From contig OZ287078.1 in the NCBI GenBank assembly GCA_965645245.1, forward strand, positions 1,178,001 through 1,242,000: DNA of 64,000 bases, read 5' to 3'. Each line of letters starts with the position of its first letter. Positions within the stretch are counted from its first letter, which is position 1. Source of the DNA: Massalongia carnosa (Eukaryota). Positions 2,179 to 13,789 of this stretch are shown here, piece after piece. The position numbers were made by a program, and so were the translations under genes. Under the pieces are notes generated by a model, which saw only the letters and a program-made list of their open reading frames with translations, was not told the DNA's origin and did no database searches.

Positions 2179-3240
2179 TTATTTCGCTCCGGCCTTTTCA
2201 TCCTCCTTCTCTTTCTTTTTCTCTTCCTTTTCTTTCTTCTTCATCTCCTCCTTCTCCTTCTTTAACTTGGCTTTCTTTTCCTTCTTCTCCTCCTCCGCCT
2301 TTTCCCGCGCCTCTCTCTCGGCCTCGTCAGCCGCGCGCTCGGCGTCTTTCAACTCCTGCTTGCGCTGCTGCTCTTGCTCTTTCAGCGCCTGCAAGGCCTC
2401 CTTTTCCGTGTCCTTGACTTCTTTTTCTTTCTTCTCAGCTTCCGATTTCCAGTCCTCAAAATTTTGCTCCGCCTCTTGCTTGGCTTCCTTTTCCGTTTTC
2501 TTGGCATCCTTCTTGGCGGCTTCCTCGGTCTCTTTCGCCGCCTCCATCACTTTATTTTCTACCTTTTTTTCTTTCTCCTCGGCCTCATCCTTCTCTTTCT
2601 TGGCCTTGGCGGCCTTCTCTTGCTCCGCTTTCTCGGCGGCCAACTGCTGCTTCGACTTCTGCGGATGATCACGATCGTTTCCTGTCAGCTTTTCCGAGAT
2701 TTTGTCCCCAGCTAACGCGGACCCGGCGGTTACGATTCCCTGAAGCGCCCCGGCTGTCATCCTTCCTGCGGTCGAAGACTGGCGTCGCATAATCCTTGAA
2801 TGGGCGAGGTGTGATTTGTGCTTGTGGCCGACTCCGTTATGGCTGTGTTCGACATGAAGGATGGAAGGACGGACTTCGACCTCAGTTGGCTCGAGGATTT
2901 CGCTGATGGCTTTGTTTATGCCTCTAGCCTTGGCGGTGGGTTTAGAAGAGTCTTCTTGGTGAGAATGGTTGTGAGGATGTCGATGATGAGAATGGTGTTG
3001 ACCGTGGGATGTAGGTATCAAAGAAGGGCGGCCATTTGCTGGAACGGGGATATGATCAATATCGGATTGAATAGGTTGTGGAACACCGGGGATCGGTAGC
3101 AACGGGAGAGTGGTGTTGACACCAGGCAACTCCGGATGGTCCCATTCAATAAATTTCGGTGCGGCGACCGGGGAGGGTGCAGCGATAGAGACTACGATGC
3201 CGAGTATGGCGCAGAGCGCGAAGGACCGAATGAGTGCCAT
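2179..3240 (-). CDS. Orphan secreted protein, His-rich pro-region and long Lys/Glu-rich charged C-terminus
   Basis: Single 353-aa ORF. Hydrophobic N-terminus MALIRSFALCAILGIVVSIAAP, His tracts (SHGQHHSHHRHPHNHSH), dibasic RR site, ~160-aa K/E/A coiled-coil-like tail. Confidence 0.7.
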   Translation of the reverse strand: MALIRSFALCAILGIVVSIAAPSPVAAPKFIEWDHPELPGVNTTLPLLPIPGVPQPIQSDIDHIPVPANGRPSLIPTSHGQHHSHHRHPHNHSHQEDSSKPTAKARGINKAISEILEPTEVEVRPSILHVEHSHNGVGHKHKSHLAHSRIMRRQSSTAGRMTAGALQGIVTAGSALAGDKISEKLTGNDRDHPQKSKQQLAAEKAEQEKAAKAKKEKDEAEEKEKKVENKVMEAAKETEEAAKKDAKKTEKEAKQEAEQNFEDWKSEAEKKEKEVKDTEKEALQALKEQEQQRKQELKDAERAADEAEREAREKAEEEKKEKKAKLKKEKEEMKKKEKEEKKKEKEDEKAGAK

Positions 3241-4432
3241 GCTGATTCAGGAAAACCTATGATGTCTGCTGAGCTGCTCATAGAAATGTTCAGTATGATT
3301 GATGGAGATGGAGATGAAGAGAGACGGTACGCAGAGGAGTGAATTATTCCACCCAGGTTTATAGCTAAATGATGGTTCAGATTATGTAGTTGGGCGCATT
3401 TAGGTTCTAAAAACAGAAATCCGGAGAGTATCCTCGAGCGAAGAGAGAAAGCGGTGCAGCAAACGATTATTGTATCTTATCGATTTTTCACATGTCAGGT
3501 CTATTAAATTAGCTTCTCAATGAAATTTCTCCGGGCCTATGACCCTCTTCCATATCAACATCATTTTTACCAAGCATGTGCCTATGGGGCGAGAGTTCAA
3601 AAATCCAAGAACTCGATCCTAGCCTGAAGATGACAATAAGGTCATTTGAGCGCAAGCTCAATTGGTCGGGATCTGTGCCGAACAAGGCTTGATCACGAAC
3701 TGCTTCGTGGTTGGAGCCAGAGACTGGTCGATTTCGGAAAGCATACCTCTCAAACGAGAACTGGAGTAGATAGCATGGGCTAGAGCCTTGGGTTTCTGGA
3801 AAATCCAGAAAAAATTTTGCATGTGCGAGATCCAGGGGAGGGAAGGGTTTTTTCTTGTAGGCTCTCTCCATGGGAAGATTTCCCAGTGGTCTACTCGCTT
3901 GGAATTGGTTGAAATTTTGCCATTCATATCCCCGTCGGCTGTTGGGGGCTCAACCCTGTGCTCTACATCTTGAGGCTACTGGAGTTTTGGGGGTAACGGC
4001 AATGGATACTAAGGTGAAGGGTTTTTTAGGGGGAAAGGGGCGCTAGTTAGGAAAGATTGCCTTGGATTGTCATCTAATGGTACTCTTTGCCCTCTCTACT
4101 ATGGTATCCAGCGATTTTGTTGTTAATAAGGTATGCAATGGTTTATTACCTACCCTCTCACACCATAGCGGTTTGTCCAGTCATAAGAATTCTTCTAAGC
4201 ATCTTAGCCACAGATCTTTTAACAAATATTCTGTAAAAGCAAGTGAAAACTAGGGTTGCCTATTCGGGTAAATGATTCGCCGTCTTGCCTTAGCACGCGG
4301 GTGAAAAAAAAAGGGCAAGGTGAGCCGAAATTCCACCAAAACTTACCCTTTTCTTCCCTTTTTTCTTCCCCATCTTCTTCCCCATTCAACATTTCAATTC
4401 GTATGACCATTAAAATTCTACATACATTCTAT

Positions 4433-5527
4433 TCAATAGCCAGTCATCGCCCCCTCAGCCCTAATTACCTCTTCCAATCGTTTGGGCATTGATCGAACTC
4501 TTTCATTGATGAATTCCTGCGTCACCCGTTCCCATCCATCCCTAATCAGCTGCTTCAAGCTGACATCGTCCCAATGAGGATACTTTCGAACATGCTGCTT
4601 CGCTGGCTGCTAGCAATTTTCTATAGGGGACAAATCAGGTGATGAGGCACAATTGAAATAATGCTCTAAATGAAGATCTTCCTTCCATTTCTTGACGGCA
4701 TTTCTTGTCTTGCCCGTGCCATGACCAGAGTCTCCATCTTCTTCAAGTACGAAGTCATCCCCACGCTCCAGCCAGGGCTTGACGACGGGGTCAAGAACGG
4801 ATTCAATATACACCTGATGAGTCATTTTACCATTGCTGTTGCCCGGCACGTCATAAAAGATAATATCCGACTTGAAATTGTAGCCAATTGCAGCCCAGCA
4901 ATGTTTTCGTTTTCGATCTTTCTCAGGAGGCGGGTCACGATGCTGTATGCAATCCCAACGATATCGTGTTCCGGGCTGACGAATGATTCATAACTGTCCT
5001 TCCGGCCCATATCCAAAATGAATCTCATCACTAAATCGTACGCGATCCCATTGCTCCGGTTTGGGATATCTGGTCAGCATCATGTGAGCAAATTCGACCC
5101 GTCTTTCCATAGGTGGGTCGGCCAGCCATCCCTTGACGCAGGCCAGACATTTCTCATAGTTTAGAGCAGCCGACATAACATTGTGCATTGTACGACCGAC
5201 AACGTCGGCCCCAATCTCCATAGCCAATTGTTCCCATGTGTATCGTTTTCCTTCCAACTGTAGCCCCTCATCTTGTAGAATGTGATCTGCCTCCTGTATT
5301 TGTGCTTCCGTGACTTTTGATTTGCGACCGCGTGTCTCAACGAGCGTTGAATGATGTCTTCCTCTAGAAGATGCTCCGTTTCGAATGATCTTATAGCCCT
5401 GTCTCTCGCTTCGAATGCCAAAATGCTGAAAAATCTCTCGAGGATCGATGGAAATGCCTTTTACAAGAAAAAATTCATAAGCTCCCTACACCTTGGCCTT
5501 TTGAGGTGTATCGTAGTGGGATGGCAT
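4433..5527 (-). pseudogene. Tc1-like DDE transposase pseudogene
   Basis: Reconstructed MPSHYDTPQKAKV*... to ...EGAMTGY* with FSDEIHF, LEEDGDSGHG and SSPDLSPIENC motifs. In-frame stops at 5486-5488, 4988-4990 and 4610-4612, and a frameshift near 5470. Confidence 0.9.
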
Positions 5528-5649
5528 TTGAAATGTTGAATGAGGAAGAAGATGGGGAAGAAAAAGGGGAAGAAAAAGGGGAAGAAAAAGGGGAAGAAAA
5601 GGGGTAAGTTTTGGTAGGGGAGTTTCGGCTCACCTTGCCCTTTTTTTTT

Positions 5650-8251
5650 GGGTACTGATATATGCCCATCCGCTACCTAGACACACCCTCTCCGGCTACA
5701 CCCCTTCCGGCTATAAAAAATTCTAGGGGTAGGGCTGGACCCCTCCCTAAACCTCATTAGGAAGCCATCTTCCTCGATCAGAATAAGTGACGTAAATTCT
5801 TCATTTTCTCATCTCAATTTTCAGTTTCCTGATCCTACATTCTGGATCAATCATGCCTCTATTACCTCCCGCCGACGGGCAGTCTTTCGAAACTCTAGAA
5901 GACTGTCTATTCTGGATACGCCGTTGTCCTACATCGTACCAAGAAATCAAAGCTGGGAATTCGTCGAAAAGCGTGGATCATCTGCGATCGAGGTCGCAAG
6001 GCCAGACCGCAAGGCGAAGAACGACGTCACAGTAGCAGTAGACGAATTGAGTGTCCCTTTTCCTGCATCGCTACCTTCGTGAACGACGTCGCCTGGCATT
6101 TGGAAGTAGTCAAACCGGAACATAATCATGAAGCTAGCTTGAGTGGAGTACATCCCGCGCATCGAAGAATCGCCTTGATCGAGCATAAGGAGGAGATTTC
6201 TCGTCAATTGACTATACAAACCAAACCGGCCAACGTGCTGTTGAGTCTTCGTATTGGAGCTCCGACTCCGAATTCGGTCAGATGGGATGAGAATGGCAAT
6301 CCTGAAGTCGTCAATCCGATGTTTATCAGTCGAGACATCTACAACTTTCGGGCTCAATTGCGACGAAATGCTTTGTGCTCATTGACTCCGATACAGAGTC
6401 TGATCCAGGAGTTTGACAAGGGCGACTGGGTATACGAGTTGCAGACAAATGATGAGAATCAGGTGAGTTTGACAAGGACAGGACAACTGAAGTTGCAGAC
6501 TAATGATGAGAACCAATCAGATCGGCAAACTTTTTTTCAGTAAATGCAGTACTCAGACTCTTTTGAAGGCAAATCCGGAAGTTTTAGTGATGGATTGCAC
6601 CTACAAAACCAACAGATTCAAAATGCCTTTGTTGATCATCGGCGGACAGACCGCATTGCATACTACGTTTTATGTCGCCTTCTGCTTCATGCATGAGGAG
6701 ACAAATGAGTCTTACATCTGGGCCATGACTCGTTTGAAAGTCTTGTACTCGCAGCTAGAACTTCCTTCTCCAACGACGACAGTCACCGACATGGATAGAG
6801 GTTTGATGTCGGCAATTGAGCTGATTTTTCCATCTACCAGTCATTTATTGTGTATCTGGCACATCAATAAGAATGTCCTAGCTCATTGCAAGAAATCATT
6901 CAGTACTGAGGCATGGGAAGTCTTTTACGGACGATGGAAATCACTTATTAAGGCTGATTCCGAGCCGAATTTTGAAGAGATGTGGGGACAGTTTCGAATC
7001 ACATACAATCGTACACATGCTGATTTGGTGAAGTTTCTTAATGCCACCTACATTTATTTTCGTCAGAGATTTGTAAAGTGCTGGACTGACCGAGTGAGGC
7101 ATTTCGAGACAACAACTACTTCGCGAGGTGAGGGCGGACATGCTGTATTGAAAAGGCAGCTGGGAACCTCCAATGGTGACTTAAAAGCAGTCGTAGATGG
7201 CGTCGCCTTGCTACTAACCAATGAGCTTCATAATCACCTCATCGCCATCAATTTGGCTAAGGATCGCTATCCTACCGACTTACGCAAACCGATTTTCCAA
7301 CGTTTGGCGAGTCGGGTCACCCCGTTTGCACTTCGAAAAATTCTTGGTCAGTACAATTTGTTGGTTGATCAACCAACGGCGATCAGGGCCTGCACCGAGG
7401 TCTTTACTACTGTCACCGGCCTGCCCTGTAGTCACAGAATTCAGAAACGACTGTACGATGACGGTGTTTTGTTGTTGGAGGATGTCCATCCTCATTGGAG
7501 GTTGGTTTTGATCAAACATTGTTGAATTCAACTAATACTAAATCTAGATTTGAAAGAGACCTTCCAGCTGATGATAATGATCCCTTGCTGGCGGTGCAGG
7601 ATCCCGCTGTCGTGCGACCTCGCGGACGCCCTCGAGGTTCCGAAAACAGAAGACAACAAGTCTTTGAAGCTTCCACCCTGCGAGAACCTTCCTTATTCGA
7701 ACGGATTGAGGCGGAAATAGCTGATCTACAAGGCGGGGAGGTGGCTCCGGACGTGGAAGCTGTCGTACATCGAGCTGATCCAGCTCCAGGGCGGGGAAGA
7801 GGGCGGAAACGCGGGCGAGGACGCGGGCGGGGGGTACGAGCACGAGGACAGGGACAGGGACAGCGACAGGAATTAGGACAGGGACAGGAACAGGGACGGG
7901 GAAGAGGGCGGAGACGAGGTAGGGCATCTCGGGCAAGGGGCGCTGCTACAAATCAAGAAGGGGCGATACCGAATGAGGTTTGGTGGCATGAAATCAGAGT
8001 CTGATTCATGAAGATGATGCCAATCGACTCCATTTCATCAAGGCAATTGCTGTCCATGAGAGATGTGCACATACTTTTCATTTCAAATTTTGAACGTGGG
8101 CGAAAATTTTCAGTCGCTGAGGTTTAGGGAGGGGTCCAGCCCTACCCTAGAATTTTTTGTGTGGGGTGTCTAGATAGCCGGAAGGGGTGTGTCTAGGTAG
8201 CCGGAGAGGGTGTGTCTAGGTAGCGGATGGGGTGTCCATATATCAGTACCC
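5650..8251 (+). mobile_element. Mutator-like (MULE) DNA transposon, 2602 bp, 9-bp TSD TTTTTTTTT
   Basis: Ends GGGTACTGATATATG (5650) and CATATATCAGTACCC (8251). Imperfect TIRs of ~105-135 bp with internal CCGGCTACCTAGACACACCC-type subrepeats. T9 on both sides (5641-5649, 8252-8260). Confidence 0.93.
5853..8004 (+). pseudogene. MULE transposase (FAR1-like DNA-binding region, DDE domain, C-terminal AT-hook/RG tail), frameshifted near its N-terminus
   Basis: Motifs CDRG...CPF...HNH, VMDCTYKTNRFKMPL, VTDMDRGL, HLLCIWHINKNV, TTSRGEGGHAVLK, GLPCSH and RPRGRPRG. Introns 6463-6520 and 7501-7547 restore frame. There is a frameshift or small deletion near 5912. Confidence 0.88.
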
Positions 8252-8680
8252 TTTTTTTTTCACCCGCGTGCTTAGCGGCCGTTGAGGTGGTATCGCTTCA
8301 TAGAGCTAGTCAAGAAGGTTAACGTAAAGAATACAAGGATCTATGGAGTTCTTAGTGGCAACTCCACAGTAAAATCAATATCCGTGTTACCAATGAGACA
8401 ACTTAAATCGTACAATAAGGTTCATAAAACCAGGTGTTTTGAAAAAGCTTGAGTCTTGGCCTATTCCCTTAACAGTCAAGCTTATCTACCAAGTAAATTA
8501 CTGGACGGTATTCCTAAAATCCTGGCCTCTGACTCAAATGTACTGATAGTTTTCCTCCGCCCATGATTTCGTTTCATTGATCTATTGGAAAAATCCGCAT
8601 AATGTATCAATATTTCGTGTGTAAGTTCTATTAGGAGCAGCCACTTTTAGCTTATCATTACTCTGTACAGGCAATTGAGC

Positions 8681-11600
8681 ATGCTATACGAAGCTAATTC
8701 GCAGTGGTCCCTTCTTCCCGAGAACAGCCGGTCTTCACTTCTTGGGCCAGACTATCTGCAAGCAGCAGTTAAGGGTGAGAAAACCCAGCCACTATGCGGT
8801 AATCATGAGGGATGGGGCCCGATGAGCCCGTACAGATATGACTTCACACCTTGCTTCCTTGACGTGTGGATTACGGTGGTGGCAGTGTTTGGGATCGTGT
8901 TGGGTGCTGGGGCAATATGGTACTTGATCAAAAAGAGAACACCCTCTCCGGTCAGTAAGAACTGGCACTTTTACACGAAGCTAGTCATCATCGTGGCCTT
9001 GATCGGGGCTACGGCACTTCAAGCTTGTCTGCAAATCGCGGCGCTGCCTGGCATTTGGTATGGGGATTTCCGGTTCTGGACGTCCATCGTTGCGCTGTGC
9101 TCGCTTGGTGTCATTGGCACCGTTCAGTACATCGAGCATTGGCGAAGCCGTCAACCCAACGGTGTCGTCCTATTCTACTGGTTGTTTCTTCTGATCGCCT
9201 TTGGCGTGAAGCTGAGATCCCTCATCGCTCAACGGGCCTATCAGCCTCGACCGTCATACTTCATTACGTTCTGTGTGAGCTTTGGCCTTGCTACTTTTGA
9301 GTTTGCGCTAGAATATCTGGTTCCCAAGAAGCAGTCGGCTTATGACGCCCTTGGGGACGAAGATGAATGTCCCATGGAGTACGCAGATGTCTTCAGCATC
9401 CTCACGTTCAGCTGGATGACTCCGATGATGAAGTATGGATACAAGGAATATTTGACGCAAGATGATTTATGGAATCTTAGGAAAAGGGATACTACCAAAA
9501 CTACCGGTAGCGTCTTGGAGGACGCTTGGGCGGTGGAACTGGAAAAGAAGCACCCATCGCTCTGGATGGCTATGTTTCGAGCCTTTCCAGGACCGTATCT
9601 TCGAGGTTCGGTGATCAAGACCATTAGCGACGCCTTGGCATTCCTACAGCCGCAGTTGCTTCGGCTGTTGATTTCGTTTATCGGCTCGTACCGTGGAGAT
9701 AATTCAAGGCCTCAGCCTGTCATCAGAGGTGCAGCAATAGCCCTGGCCATGTTTGCCGTGTCAGTCTCACAGACCGTTTGTCTACATCAATATTTCCAGC
9801 GAGCCTTTGAAACTGGAATGCGAATCAAATCCGCCCTGACCGCCATGATCTATGCCAAATCTATGAAACTGTCAAACGAAGGTCGAGCTTCGAAGTCAAC
9901 AGGGGATATAGTCAACTATATGGCTGTGGACACGCAACGATTGCAAGATCTGACTCAATTTGCGCAAATGCTTTGGTCTGCCCCGTTCCAGATACTTTTA
10001 TGTATGGTTTCATTGTACCAGCTGGTTGGCTGGAGCATGTTGGCTGGTGTTGGAGCGATGATTCTTATGATACCTATCAATGGTATCATCGCGAGGATTA
10101 TGAAATCGCTACAGAAGACCCAAATGAAGAACAAGGACACGAGAACACGGCTCATGACCGAGATTCTTAACAACATGAAAAGCATTAAATTGTTCGCTTG
10201 GTCACAAGCATTCATGAACAAGCTTAACTATGTACGCAATGATCAGGAACTCAAGACTCTTCGCAAGATTGGGGCTGCACAAGCTCTAGCAAACTTTACA
10301 TGGTCAACAACACCATTCCTAGTTTCGTGCGCTACCTTTGCCGTTTTTGTTTTTACTACAGATAGGCCTTTGTCTACAGAAATTGTGTTTCCTGCGCTGA
10401 CTCTTTTCAATATGTTGACATTCCCATTGGCTGTCCTTCCCATGGTCATCACATCGATCATCGAGGCATCAGTTGCTGTTGGACGTCTTACGAGCTTCTT
10501 CACCGCTGAGGAGCTCCAAGCTGATGCGATAATTATCGAAGATCCTGTGAAACAGAACGGAGATATTGCATTACGAGTTCGTGATGCTACGTTCACCTGG
10601 GACCGCAAGGAGAGTCGTAAATGCTTGGAGAATATCAACTTCGAAGCCCGCAAGGGAGAGCTTAGCTGCGTGGTTGGACGGGTTGGATCTGGCAAATCGT
10701 CTCTATTACAAGCAATCCTAGGGGATGTCTGGAAGATCAATGGCGAAGTCGTGGTACATGGAAAGACTGCGTACGTTGCGCAACAATCATGGATCATGAA
10801 TGCCAGTGTCAAAGAGAACATTGTGTTTGGACATCGCTGGGATCCTCACTTTTACGAGCGTACCGTAAATGCCTGTGCTCTTGCAGAGGATTTCAAGACG
10901 CTCCCTGATGGTGATCAGACAGAAGTCGGAGAACGTGGAATCTCCTTGTCAGGAGGACAAAAGGCACGTTTGACTTTAGCAAGAGCTGTCTACGCTCGAG
11001 CTGATGTCTACATACTGGACGATTGTCTCTCTGCTGTGGATCAGCACGTCGGTAGGCACTTGATTGACAATGTGTTCGGTCGGCATGGACTGTTAGCTGG
11101 GAAAGCAAGGATTTTAGCAACAAATTCGATACCAGTCCTGGTGGAAGCCGAATTCGTTACTCTGCTTCGTGATGGGAAAGTGGTCGAGAAAGGCACTTAC
11201 GAGCAGCTGATGGCAATGAAAGGCGAGATCGCCACCTTAATTCGAACCGCCAACAATGAAGAAGAAGAGTCACCGTCGTCAAGTGGAGGGGAAAGTAAGG
11301 AGACGAGTAGCTCTGCGAGCGACGAATCATCGACAATTATTGGCCCTGATGATGACATACAGGAAGGAATTGGCCAATTCTCCCCAATTCAACCCAGAAA
11401 GATTACCAATGCACGTAAGGCAAGTGAGGTGACATTGCGGCGTGCAAGCACGGCATCGTTTAAAGAACCTCGCGGTAAGGGAACAGATGAGGAAGGAGAG
11501 GGTGGAAAATCAAAACAAAGCAAGGAGTTCTCTGAGCAGGGCAGGGTGAAGTGGGATGTGTACGGAGAATATGCCAAGACAAGTAACCTAGTTGCGGTGG

Positions 11601-13789
11601 GCATATACCTTGTCACCCTGTTGAGCGCACAGACCGCTCAAATAGGGGGGAGCCTTTGGTTGAAAAGGTGGTCGGAGACCAACCAAGAATATGGGGGCAA
11701 CCCCGAGGTCGGTAAGTACCTTGGGGTGTATTTTGCCATTGGTATTGGATCGGCAGCGTTGGTTGTGGTGCAGACCCTCATCCTTTGGATATTCTGTTCA
11801 ATCGAAGCCTCACGGAAATTGCACGAGAGAATGGCCTTTGCAATATTTAGGGCTCCCATGAGTTTCTTCGAGACTACGCCGGCTGGGCGTATCCTCAATC
11901 GCTTCTCTAGGTATGTTTTCCCCTCTTGGTCGATGGTGGCGGTGGGATTCCCTCGTCTCGATTTCCGCGGCAGTTGAGCTTCAGAGGCGAAGATGTTTAC
12001 GAAGGCCTACCAGGCAAAGTTTTTAACTTCCTGCTCTTGCCCCGATTGATTATCTAGCATTAGCTTTCTCGCTGTGCGGTTGCATGATATCGGTCTCAAC
12101 ACCTGCAGGTAAAAGGTTCTGGCTGATTTAGGCTTAGTGACATTTATCGTATTGATGAAGTTTTAGCGAGGACTTTCAATATGGTTAGCACATTCCCTTA
12201 AACGGTATATTATGACACGCACAGCTAACGTTTCGGGATCCAGCTTTTTGTAAATACTGCGCGAGCTCTGTATACACTGATTCTCATTAGCGCCTCGACA
12301 CCAGCGTTTATCGTGCTGATTATACCCTTGGGAGCGGTCTACATTTACATTCAACGATATTACTTGCGTACTTCTAGGGAACTGAAACGCCTTGACAGCA
12401 TAAGCAGAAGTCCTATATACGCCCATTTTCAAGAATCCCTTGGTGGAATAACTACCATTCGCGCGTATCGCCAACAACCAAGGTTTTCTTTGGAGAATGA
12501 ATGGCGTGTGGACGCCAATCTCCGGGCATATTTCCCTTCAATCAATGCAAACAGATGGCTAGCGGTTCGTCTGGAGTTTATCGGCTCCTTCATCATTCTC
12601 GCTGCCGCATCGTTCGCTATTGTTTCTGTGGCAATGGGAAGTAGCTTATCAGCAGGAATGGTGGGTCTAGCCATGTCCTATGCCTTGCAAATCACTCAAA
12701 GTCTGAACTGGGTCGTTCGTCAAACCGTAGAGGTTGAGACAAATATCGTCTCGGTGGAGCGTGTTTTGGAGTATTCCAGGTTGCCGAGTGAGGCACCCGA
12801 AGTTGTTTCAAAGAACAGACCCAAAATCAGCTGGCCAGCGCAAGGGGCTGTCGAGTTCACCAATTATTCCACCAGATATCGACCTGGATTGGATTTGGTG
12901 TTGAAGAATATCAACATCAGCATCAAAGCCCATGAAAAGGTCGGTGTAGTGGGCAGAACTGGAGCTGGTAAATCTTCTTTGACTTTGGCTCTCTTCAGAA
13001 TCATCGAACCCGTCACGGGAAACATCTCAATTGACGACCTCAACACATCTACCGTGGGATTACTTGATGTGCGGCGGAGGCTTGCCATCATACCTCAAGA
13101 TGCAGCCCTGTTTGAGGGGACCATACGAGACAATCTTGACCCTGGGCATGTCCATGATGAGACAGAGCTGTGGGCAGTTTTAGGTAAACCCTCCGGTGCT
13201 GATTTAACCGCACTTGTAAAATCGCTGCTAACACCAGAGTGCAATAGATCATGCAAGGCTGAAGGAGCATGTGTCAAGCATGCCCGGCCACCTTGATGCT
13301 CAGGTGTACGAAGGAGGTACGTAATTTTGATTTTATTAGTCGTCATTGGTTGATTTCATTGTACATGACCTGACCCACTCGATCATCAGGCTCCAACCTT
13401 TCTCAAGGCCAGAGGCAGCTTGTCTCGCTAGCTCGGGCGCTTTTAACGCCAACCAACATACTAGTTCTGGACGAAGCAACGGTATTGACTCCCCTGTTAC
13501 ATCGCACAGTTATGGGTTATTAACAGTTTTGATCTTCCAGGCAGCTGTGGATATCGAGACAGATGCGCTGCTGCAAACCACCCTGCGTAGCAGTATGTTT
13601 AAAGATCGTACCATTATTACGATTGCTCATCGGATCAACACCATCCTAGATTCCGATCGCGTTATCGTGCTAGATCATGGCTCGGTGGCAGAATTCGATA
13701 CACCGTCAGAACTTGTCCGTCAAAAGGGGCTTTTCTACGAACTTGTGAAAGAAGCTGGCTTGCTTGATAACATCGAGAGGCGAGGATAG
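8681..13789 (+). CDS. YCF1: Vacuolar ABCC/MRP glutathione-conjugate (metal resistance) transporter
   Basis: TMD0-TMD1-NBD1 (GRVGSGKSS, LSGGQKARL)-R domain (TLRRASTASF)-TMD2-NBD2 (GRTGAGKSS). Introns ~11911-12137, 12184-12243, 13184-13247, 13317-13389 and 13482-13540. Confidence 0.95.

Follow-up and report, generated by a model that had tools for sequence, protein, structure and literature searches.

Duplication of exon sequence is a known route to new introns. A review table credits tandem duplication with 188 intron gains, many of them imprecise (PMC3443670), and the route has been shown in vivo for ATP2A (PMC3265369). Exon-like introns are reported as rare among gains, with 2 of 62 in fission yeasts (PMC3629103) and one case in Neurospora (PMC4317165); in Drosophila, a source was traced for one of 307 new introns (PMC2809761), and a mite survey describes no clear duplication signature (bioRxiv 10.1101/051292). 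The first-pass annotation of the present locus spoke of few clear natural examples, which holds for cases with a readable source (PMC4974935, PMC3629103, PMC4317165, PMC2809761), as against the 188 tabulated events. Clear phylogeny and an identified source are the two criteria that the potato RdRp study takes from Logsdon et al. (PMC4974935). Intron gain in a transposase has been discussed for CACTA elements, in a passage that gives no source (PMC4158355), and no transposase intron ascribed to duplication came up in a literature search covering mostly the main texts of non-subscription papers.

Here we describe a 58-nt insert in the transposase gene of a Mutator-like element (MULE). All positions refer to the window, the whole 64,000-nt stretch of DNA that was analysed; searches of the same genome covered the 52-Mb assembly. 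Our results make it probable that the insert is a young spliced U2-type intron that arose when adjacent sequence was duplicated in the master copy of the family to which the element belongs (family A).

The element and its family

The features of the locus are as follows.

5650..8251, + strand: MULE DNA transposon, disabled family A copy (from terminal inverted repeats, TIRs, and Pfam)
5650..5756, + strand: left TIR of the MULE
8118..8251, - strand: right TIR of the MULE
5641..5649, repeated at 8252-8260, no strand: target-site duplication, a 9-nt T-run
5853..6462, + strand: exon 1, N-terminal FAR1/AFT-like domain, frameshifted here by a 26-nt deletion
6405..6408, + strand: 4-nt microhomology ahead of the duplicated unit, matching the unit end at 6459-6462
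6409..6462, + strand: exon copy and source of the duplication, 54 nt or 18 codons
6463..6520, + strand: putative intron 1, a 58-nt phase-0 insert made of 2 extra nt and a diverged second copy
6463..6468, + strand: donor GTGAGT at the duplication junction, identical in 12/12 copies
6476..6490, + strand: rearranged middle of the second copy
6500..6504, + strand: branch-site motif CTAAT with its A at 6503, in 12/12 copies
6518..6520, + strand: acceptor CAG, inherited from the unit end, in 12/12 copies
6521..7500, + strand: exon 2, catalytic MULE domain, open in the window copy
7501..7547, + strand: putative intron 2, 47 nt, unlike its flanks
7548..8004, + strand: exon 3, low-complexity C-terminus
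4289..8275, - strand: Tc1/mariner-type element (inverted repeats, DDE_3 match), with the MULE inserted in its terminal repeat

The assignment to MULE DNA transposons rests on the transposase domain downstream of the insert site (Pfam MULE, E 1.2e-27, above the cut-off), the long TIRs and target-site duplications, which measure 8-9 nt in the other family A copies. Upstream of the insert site there is a weak match to the Pfam FAR1/AFT domain, and a search of exon 2 against solved structures gave no match. The T-run that hosts the MULE belongs to the terminal repeat of the Tc1/mariner-type element, itself frameshifted, and other family A copies also lie in A/T-rich targets. About 400 bases from these nested transposons starts a YCF1/MRP-type ABC transporter gene (8651-11977); this YCF1-like neighbour and the intron signals, which are of fungal type, indicate a fungal genome. 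A 355-codon frame at 2179-3246 (- strand) has a signal-peptide-like start, a His-rich middle and a Lys/Glu-rich end.

Exon 1 starts with the ATG at 5853. The first-pass annotation had fused two open reading frames across the insert, and the removal of 6463-6520 stands as the best in-frame cut; the upstream frame that it used (6079-6543), opening with GTG, does not correspond to the true exon 1, and the frameshift in exon 1 of the window copy was missed. Because the 26-nt deletion early in exon 1 shifts the frame, the window copy is disabled whether spliced or unspliced.

A search of the same genome with the 281-nt junction region gave at least 35 matches. Of these, 12 span the insert, and each is a family A copy with its flanks, which is different from introners and introner-like elements, where the same intron occurs at unrelated sites without flanks. 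An intronless or intermediate family A copy, proposed earlier as a check, was not present among the 35 matches listed. The 14-nt junction motif has one exact match among 28 hits, and this sits in unrelated sequence. All 12 copies are disabled and differ by 0.9-3.4% from their majority pattern, which is open for 675 aa with both introns removed and for 238 aa unspliced. The shared changes in exons 1 and 2 (18 non-synonymous, 2 stops and 6 synonymous, where each synonymous site is matched by about 2.6-3.5 non-synonymous ones) look about neutral, and within family A no signal of selection after the gain was detected.

The insert as a copy of the adjacent exon

The insert derives from the adjacent exon. 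When the exon copy (54 nt) is compared with the insert (58 nt), the 5' block is identical at 13/13 positions, the middle (15 versus 13 nt) is hardly alignable, and the 3' block is identical at 21/22 positions, its sole change giving CTAAT with the branch A 17 nt from the insert end. The insert ends with the same TCAG as the unit, with 4 extra nt ahead of it. Local alignment of the insert with the preceding 70 nt scores 49, a value that none of 20,000 dinucleotide shuffles reaches (mean 14.9, SD 2.6, maximum 35). Among 9,125 windows stepped along the 64 kb it is reached by 28, which fall into three places: the insert site, a run of Ns and a simple tandem repeat. Of the 15 intron-like GT..AG candidates in the window, the 14 apart from the insert are 45-87 nt long and score 8-16. 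The sequence and coordinates reported in the first-pass annotation are as written there, and the block alignment together with the shuffles confirms its description of 6463-6520 as a diverged tandem copy of 6409-6462. The D-W-x-Y motif of relatives is kept in the exon copy and lost in the second copy. An assembly artefact, previously regarded as unlikely, is ruled out by the presence of the insert in 12/12 family loci and by contigs of two public runs, from two studies, which cross it gap-free.

Absence of the insert in relatives

A protein search of the same genome gave 125 matches. In all, 108 loci were taken; 100 of these could be anchored, and they fall into ten families. In the seven sister MULE families, 70 of 72 loci are without the insert (53-63 nt, compared with 111-113 nt in family A) and the other two lack the anchor. 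A tree built from exon 2 only unites family A and these seven families in one clade with support of 100/99. At least ten related MULE families coexist in the genome, eight of them in this clade of unsettled order; their TIRs are related yet differ.

Outside the genome, the nearest relative is P0059, which is known as protein only and is sister to family A with support of 100/100. It forms one continuous frame of 544 aa that is collinear, gap-free, with the spliced junction, and it is 73% and 70% identical to family A across the two exons. Changes of C>T/G>A alone could account for 31/57 and 52/97 of the differences. Its contig is probably genomic, since the protein ends like the unspliced intron 2 of family A, and the mutation bias points the same way. 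Despite this strong bias relative to family A there is no stop in 544 codons, a pattern unlike classical RIP.

From databases, 123 proteins were examined, of which 59 were measurable; 58 of these, some from the same genome, have the unexpanded spacing, and the single exception is a read-through of family A itself. Among 80 metagenome loci, 46 are continuous, 5 are too short and 29 are ambiguous, the last group showing no intron signals within 6 nt of the site. The best metagenome loci are 49-52% identical in the search for DNA of closest relatives, and the viral contigs that were searched contained no close-relative DNA.

Relatives with neither duplication nor intron, which the first-pass annotation had named as a possible support, were found among the sister loci and in P0059, and the case that it considered damaging, an unrelated intron at the same position in distant homologs, was not seen at the site. 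Taken together, the similarity of the two copies, the absence of the insert in sister families and the collinearity of P0059 with the spliced product argue that the insert was gained and that its source was the adjacent exon, P0059 being a protein-only relative and the order of the sister families not being resolved by the tree.

Formation of the insert

The codon before the unit is Gln in the three closest relatives (P0059, P0106 and P0118), as an in-frame route requires, and the 4 nt before the unit read TCAG in 10/12 family A copies (CCAG in the window copy). The two TCAG microhomologies lie 54 nt apart, and slippage or break repair between them could have duplicated the last 18 codons of exon 1 in frame. 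At the junction, the gain of two bases, in the same event or afterwards, would have turned CAG|GAG into CAG|GTGAGT; the acceptor would have been supplied by the unit end, and the branch site would have needed at most one base change. A rearrangement of the middle of the second copy and the addition of 4 nt would then make a retained insert run into a stop before the catalytic domain. Finally, a spliced master would have given rise to the 12 extant copies, which later decayed.

The first 54 nt of the insert are 18 stop-free codons ending in the duplicated peptide; in this frame the branch-site change is synonymous and the two nucleotides added at the donor are offset by two lost in the middle, and the final 4-nt insertion alone makes retention frameshifting. 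The stop-free stretch hints at a translatable intermediate, with the reservation that recovery of the frame has a one-in-three chance anyway. A stepwise birth from a translatable in-frame duplication without a proto-splice site, in which retention yields a product with DNA binding only, is put forward as a tentative reading of these features. With a length of 58 nt, a retained insert would be exposed to nonsense-mediated decay, which agrees with the reported deficit of stop-free 3n introns; in the model of that study, however, stop-free 3n insertions are expected to need strong sites from the start (PMC2809761).

Change between the copies is concentrated in the middle relative to the flanks (Fisher p 0.014 or 0.001, depending on how events are counted), which one plain duplication followed by uniform drift does not account for, and this suggests that part of the remodelling of the middle took place in one repair event. 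Another possibility, also tentative, is that the 13- and 22-nt pieces were copied around a filler in one event of error-prone repair or gap filling that followed transposition, in place of a clean duplication with later divergence. Near-identical flanks around a scrambled middle would fit such a scar, and Daphnia neointrons with mosaic sequence have been ascribed to break repair (PMC4202315). On the other hand, the pieces are collinear with almost their original spacing, the 39 shared nucleotides far exceed the repeats of 4-12 nt described for Daphnia (PMC4202315), and a search across the element revealed no convincing template for the rearranged middle. The best other candidate, a 13/17 match in a low-complexity tract, was rejected. 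The outcome of such an event would still be a local duplication, and to that extent it overlaps with the preferred explanation.

A one-step birth differs from the in-frame route in the origin of the donor and can be regarded as a sub-route of local duplication, and a rather unlikely one. It assumes an ancestral CGT GAG, from which a 56-nt unit running from a latent GT to CAG was duplicated, so that the second copy formed an entire intron from the outset and the exon copy later lost its GT. No insertion is necessary here, family B carries a latent GTGAGT at the unit start, and Arg occupies that codon in 5/7 sister families. Against this, the three closest relatives have Gln, family B is not resolved as the sister of family A, microhomology is absent at the ends of a 56-nt unit, and two substitutions would be required in one codon, compared with one change in the 39 nt of the flanks. 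The 54-nt in-frame duplication with a 2-nt insertion is therefore rather clearly favoured on present comparisons over the 56-nt unit. The first-pass proposal of intron gain by duplication is borne out in the derivation from the exon, the absence in relatives and the performance of the cut described below; the AGGT model of Rogers in its strict form does not apply, as no AGGT exists in 6403-6462 and the only AG|GT is the junction itself.

Is the insert spliced?

U2-type introns have a GTRAGT donor, a CTRAY branch motif, a YAG acceptor and, in fungi, a short length. The insert has GTGAGT, CTAAT, CAG and a short fungal length, and the three signals that the first-pass annotation saw in the second copy are identical in 12/12 family A copies. 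This invariance adds little, because with 7 changes in 58 nt the chance of missing the 14 signal positions is about 0.14. When 31 open in-frame GT/GC..AG cuts were compared with five intronless relatives, removal of 6463-6520 was the best (313.8 versus 292.0), and it is the only one of the ten top-scoring cuts with a consensus donor. The alignable flanks allow 117 single changes, of which just 3 create CTRAY, and the observed change is one of these. This substitution separates the two copies. The first-pass annotation took the branch site as newly made, but it may be either new in the insert or lost in the exon, the closest relatives being known as protein only; an argument for its novelty from the Lys codons of distant families was dropped, because closer relatives show Thr there. 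Public contigs from four runs (longest records 83-120 kb, probably DNA) have no joint at either intron, which has no bearing on splicing.

Alternatively, the insert was never spliced: a frameshifting duplication killed the master, the signals arose by chance, and the family spread with a sister transposase or by read-through after a compensating slip. We consider this improbable, for it needs three coincidences, namely a consensus donor at the junction, a CAG end and a flank change among the 3 of 117 that give the branch motif. Collinearity by itself is no proof of splicing, since any tandem duplicate returns to its ancestral state when one of the copies is taken out. The lack of an intact copy and the neutral-looking substitutions agree with a family that never spliced, but DNA transposon copies are expected to decay neutrally whether or not the master spliced. 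The TIRs of family A resemble their counterparts in families E and F (among the 20 loci compared, 5 yielded no TIR pair, including both D loci and J), and mobilisation of family A in trans by a sister transposase is possible. A compensating slip has its counterpart in L003 and L012, two of the 12 copies, which share a frame-restoring 1-nt deletion; it falls within a T-run, and each of the two copies is broken elsewhere too. With this deletion, at 6530-6531, the unspliced frame is open and the spliced one disrupted, leaving 19 extra residues in frame in the database protein P0114, and it also occurs in contigs of runs X1 and X3. The preferred reading remains a spliced intron.

Other introns of MULEs

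Duplication does not appear to be a general source of MULE introns, as 0/13 other introns resemble their flanks. Families H and I and a number of distant loci carry unrelated inserts close to the site, in each case at another position. That an old intron was kept at the site, or slid to it, and was later overwritten by exon sequence is highly improbable: more distant MULEs do have unrelated intron-like inserts about 24, 34, 54 and 58 nt upstream (offsets by eye from alignments), but none lies at 6462/6463 itself, none of the 29 ambiguous metagenome loci has signals within 6 nt, all nearer relatives are uninterrupted, and the 13 other introns score 8-18 against their flanks compared with 49 here.

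A second intron-like insert is located at the H-W-R codon (7501-7547 in the window). It is present, with unrelated sequences, in families A, B, D and E and absent in C, F, G and J (loci compared: L024, L049 and L058 versus L039, L065, L084 and L102), and the empty site in F and G reads AG|GT. Either introns were gained in parallel at a proto-splice site, or an intron was lost more than once. Four distant MULEs (L136, L137, L147 and L171) carry an unrelated phase-0 intron that matches 6408/6409, the start of the duplicated unit, which is probably a shared proto-splice site or a coincidence. At least four other intron positions lie within about 20 codons upstream in more distant MULEs (L089-L097, L105, L148, L149, L153 and L179), and intron gain seems to be frequent in this stretch. 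A MULE-like sequence from a metagenome (L174, about 460-660) has a tandem array of units of about 22 nt, with CTAAT or CTGAT and CAG, in place of the coding region upstream of the catalytic motif.

Comparison with known systems

Most new introns cannot be traced to a source. Here the source, the intronless state and all intervening changes fit into 112 bases, which makes every step accessible to a small splicing reporter. On the one hand, the insert would add a further example to a mechanism already known, and it belongs to a transposon family that has decayed. On the other hand, the absence of a proto-splice site and the wholly exonic source set it apart from the textbook form, and the duplication route would be extended to units without AG|GT. 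If the stepwise reading is true, it is a readable example of gradual intron birth inside a transposase. The case bears on the claim in PMC3265369 that introns are unlikely to arise from incremental accumulation of sub-elements.

For a functional consequence, such as the limit on transposase output that the first-pass annotation suggested, IVS3 of the P element (PMC7776569) offers an analogy only: retention in the MULE would give an N-terminal DNA-binding product without the catalytic domain. As in the Daphnia neointrons ascribed to break repair (PMC4202315), the exon-end sequence recurs at the far end of the insert and a mosaic origin is possible; the Daphnia introns, however, have a body of no known source between their short repeats, whereas the 39 nt at both ends of the MULE insert match the exon. 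The Schizosaccharomyces SPOG_01682/SOCG_00815 introns (PMC3629103) and Neurospora NCU09740 (PMC4317165) are, like the present one, fungal introns that resemble the adjacent exon. They are described in host genes rather than a transposase, the former with AGGC proto-splice sites in 24-nt arrays and the latter with an identical copy of 614 bp.

The potato RdRp intron (PMC4974935) shares with the MULE insert a non-AGGT route, a clear phylogeny and an identified source. Its duplication spanned an existing intron-exon boundary and inherited the branch site and acceptor from the old intron, and it is supported by 106 junction reads, whereas the MULE intron is deduced from sequence alone and its source is entirely exonic. 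With the AGGT model of Rogers and vertebrate ATP2A1 (PMC3265369) there are three points of agreement: an exon segment is repeated head-to-tail, its removal leaves the protein unchanged, and paralogues lack the intron. The splicing of ATP2A1 has been demonstrated, while that of the MULE is read from the DNA, where the source can still be recognised. In ATP2A1, the AG|GT inside the unit gives both donor and acceptor; in the MULE, the junction is the only place with a donor, and the putative intron takes in the second copy in full.
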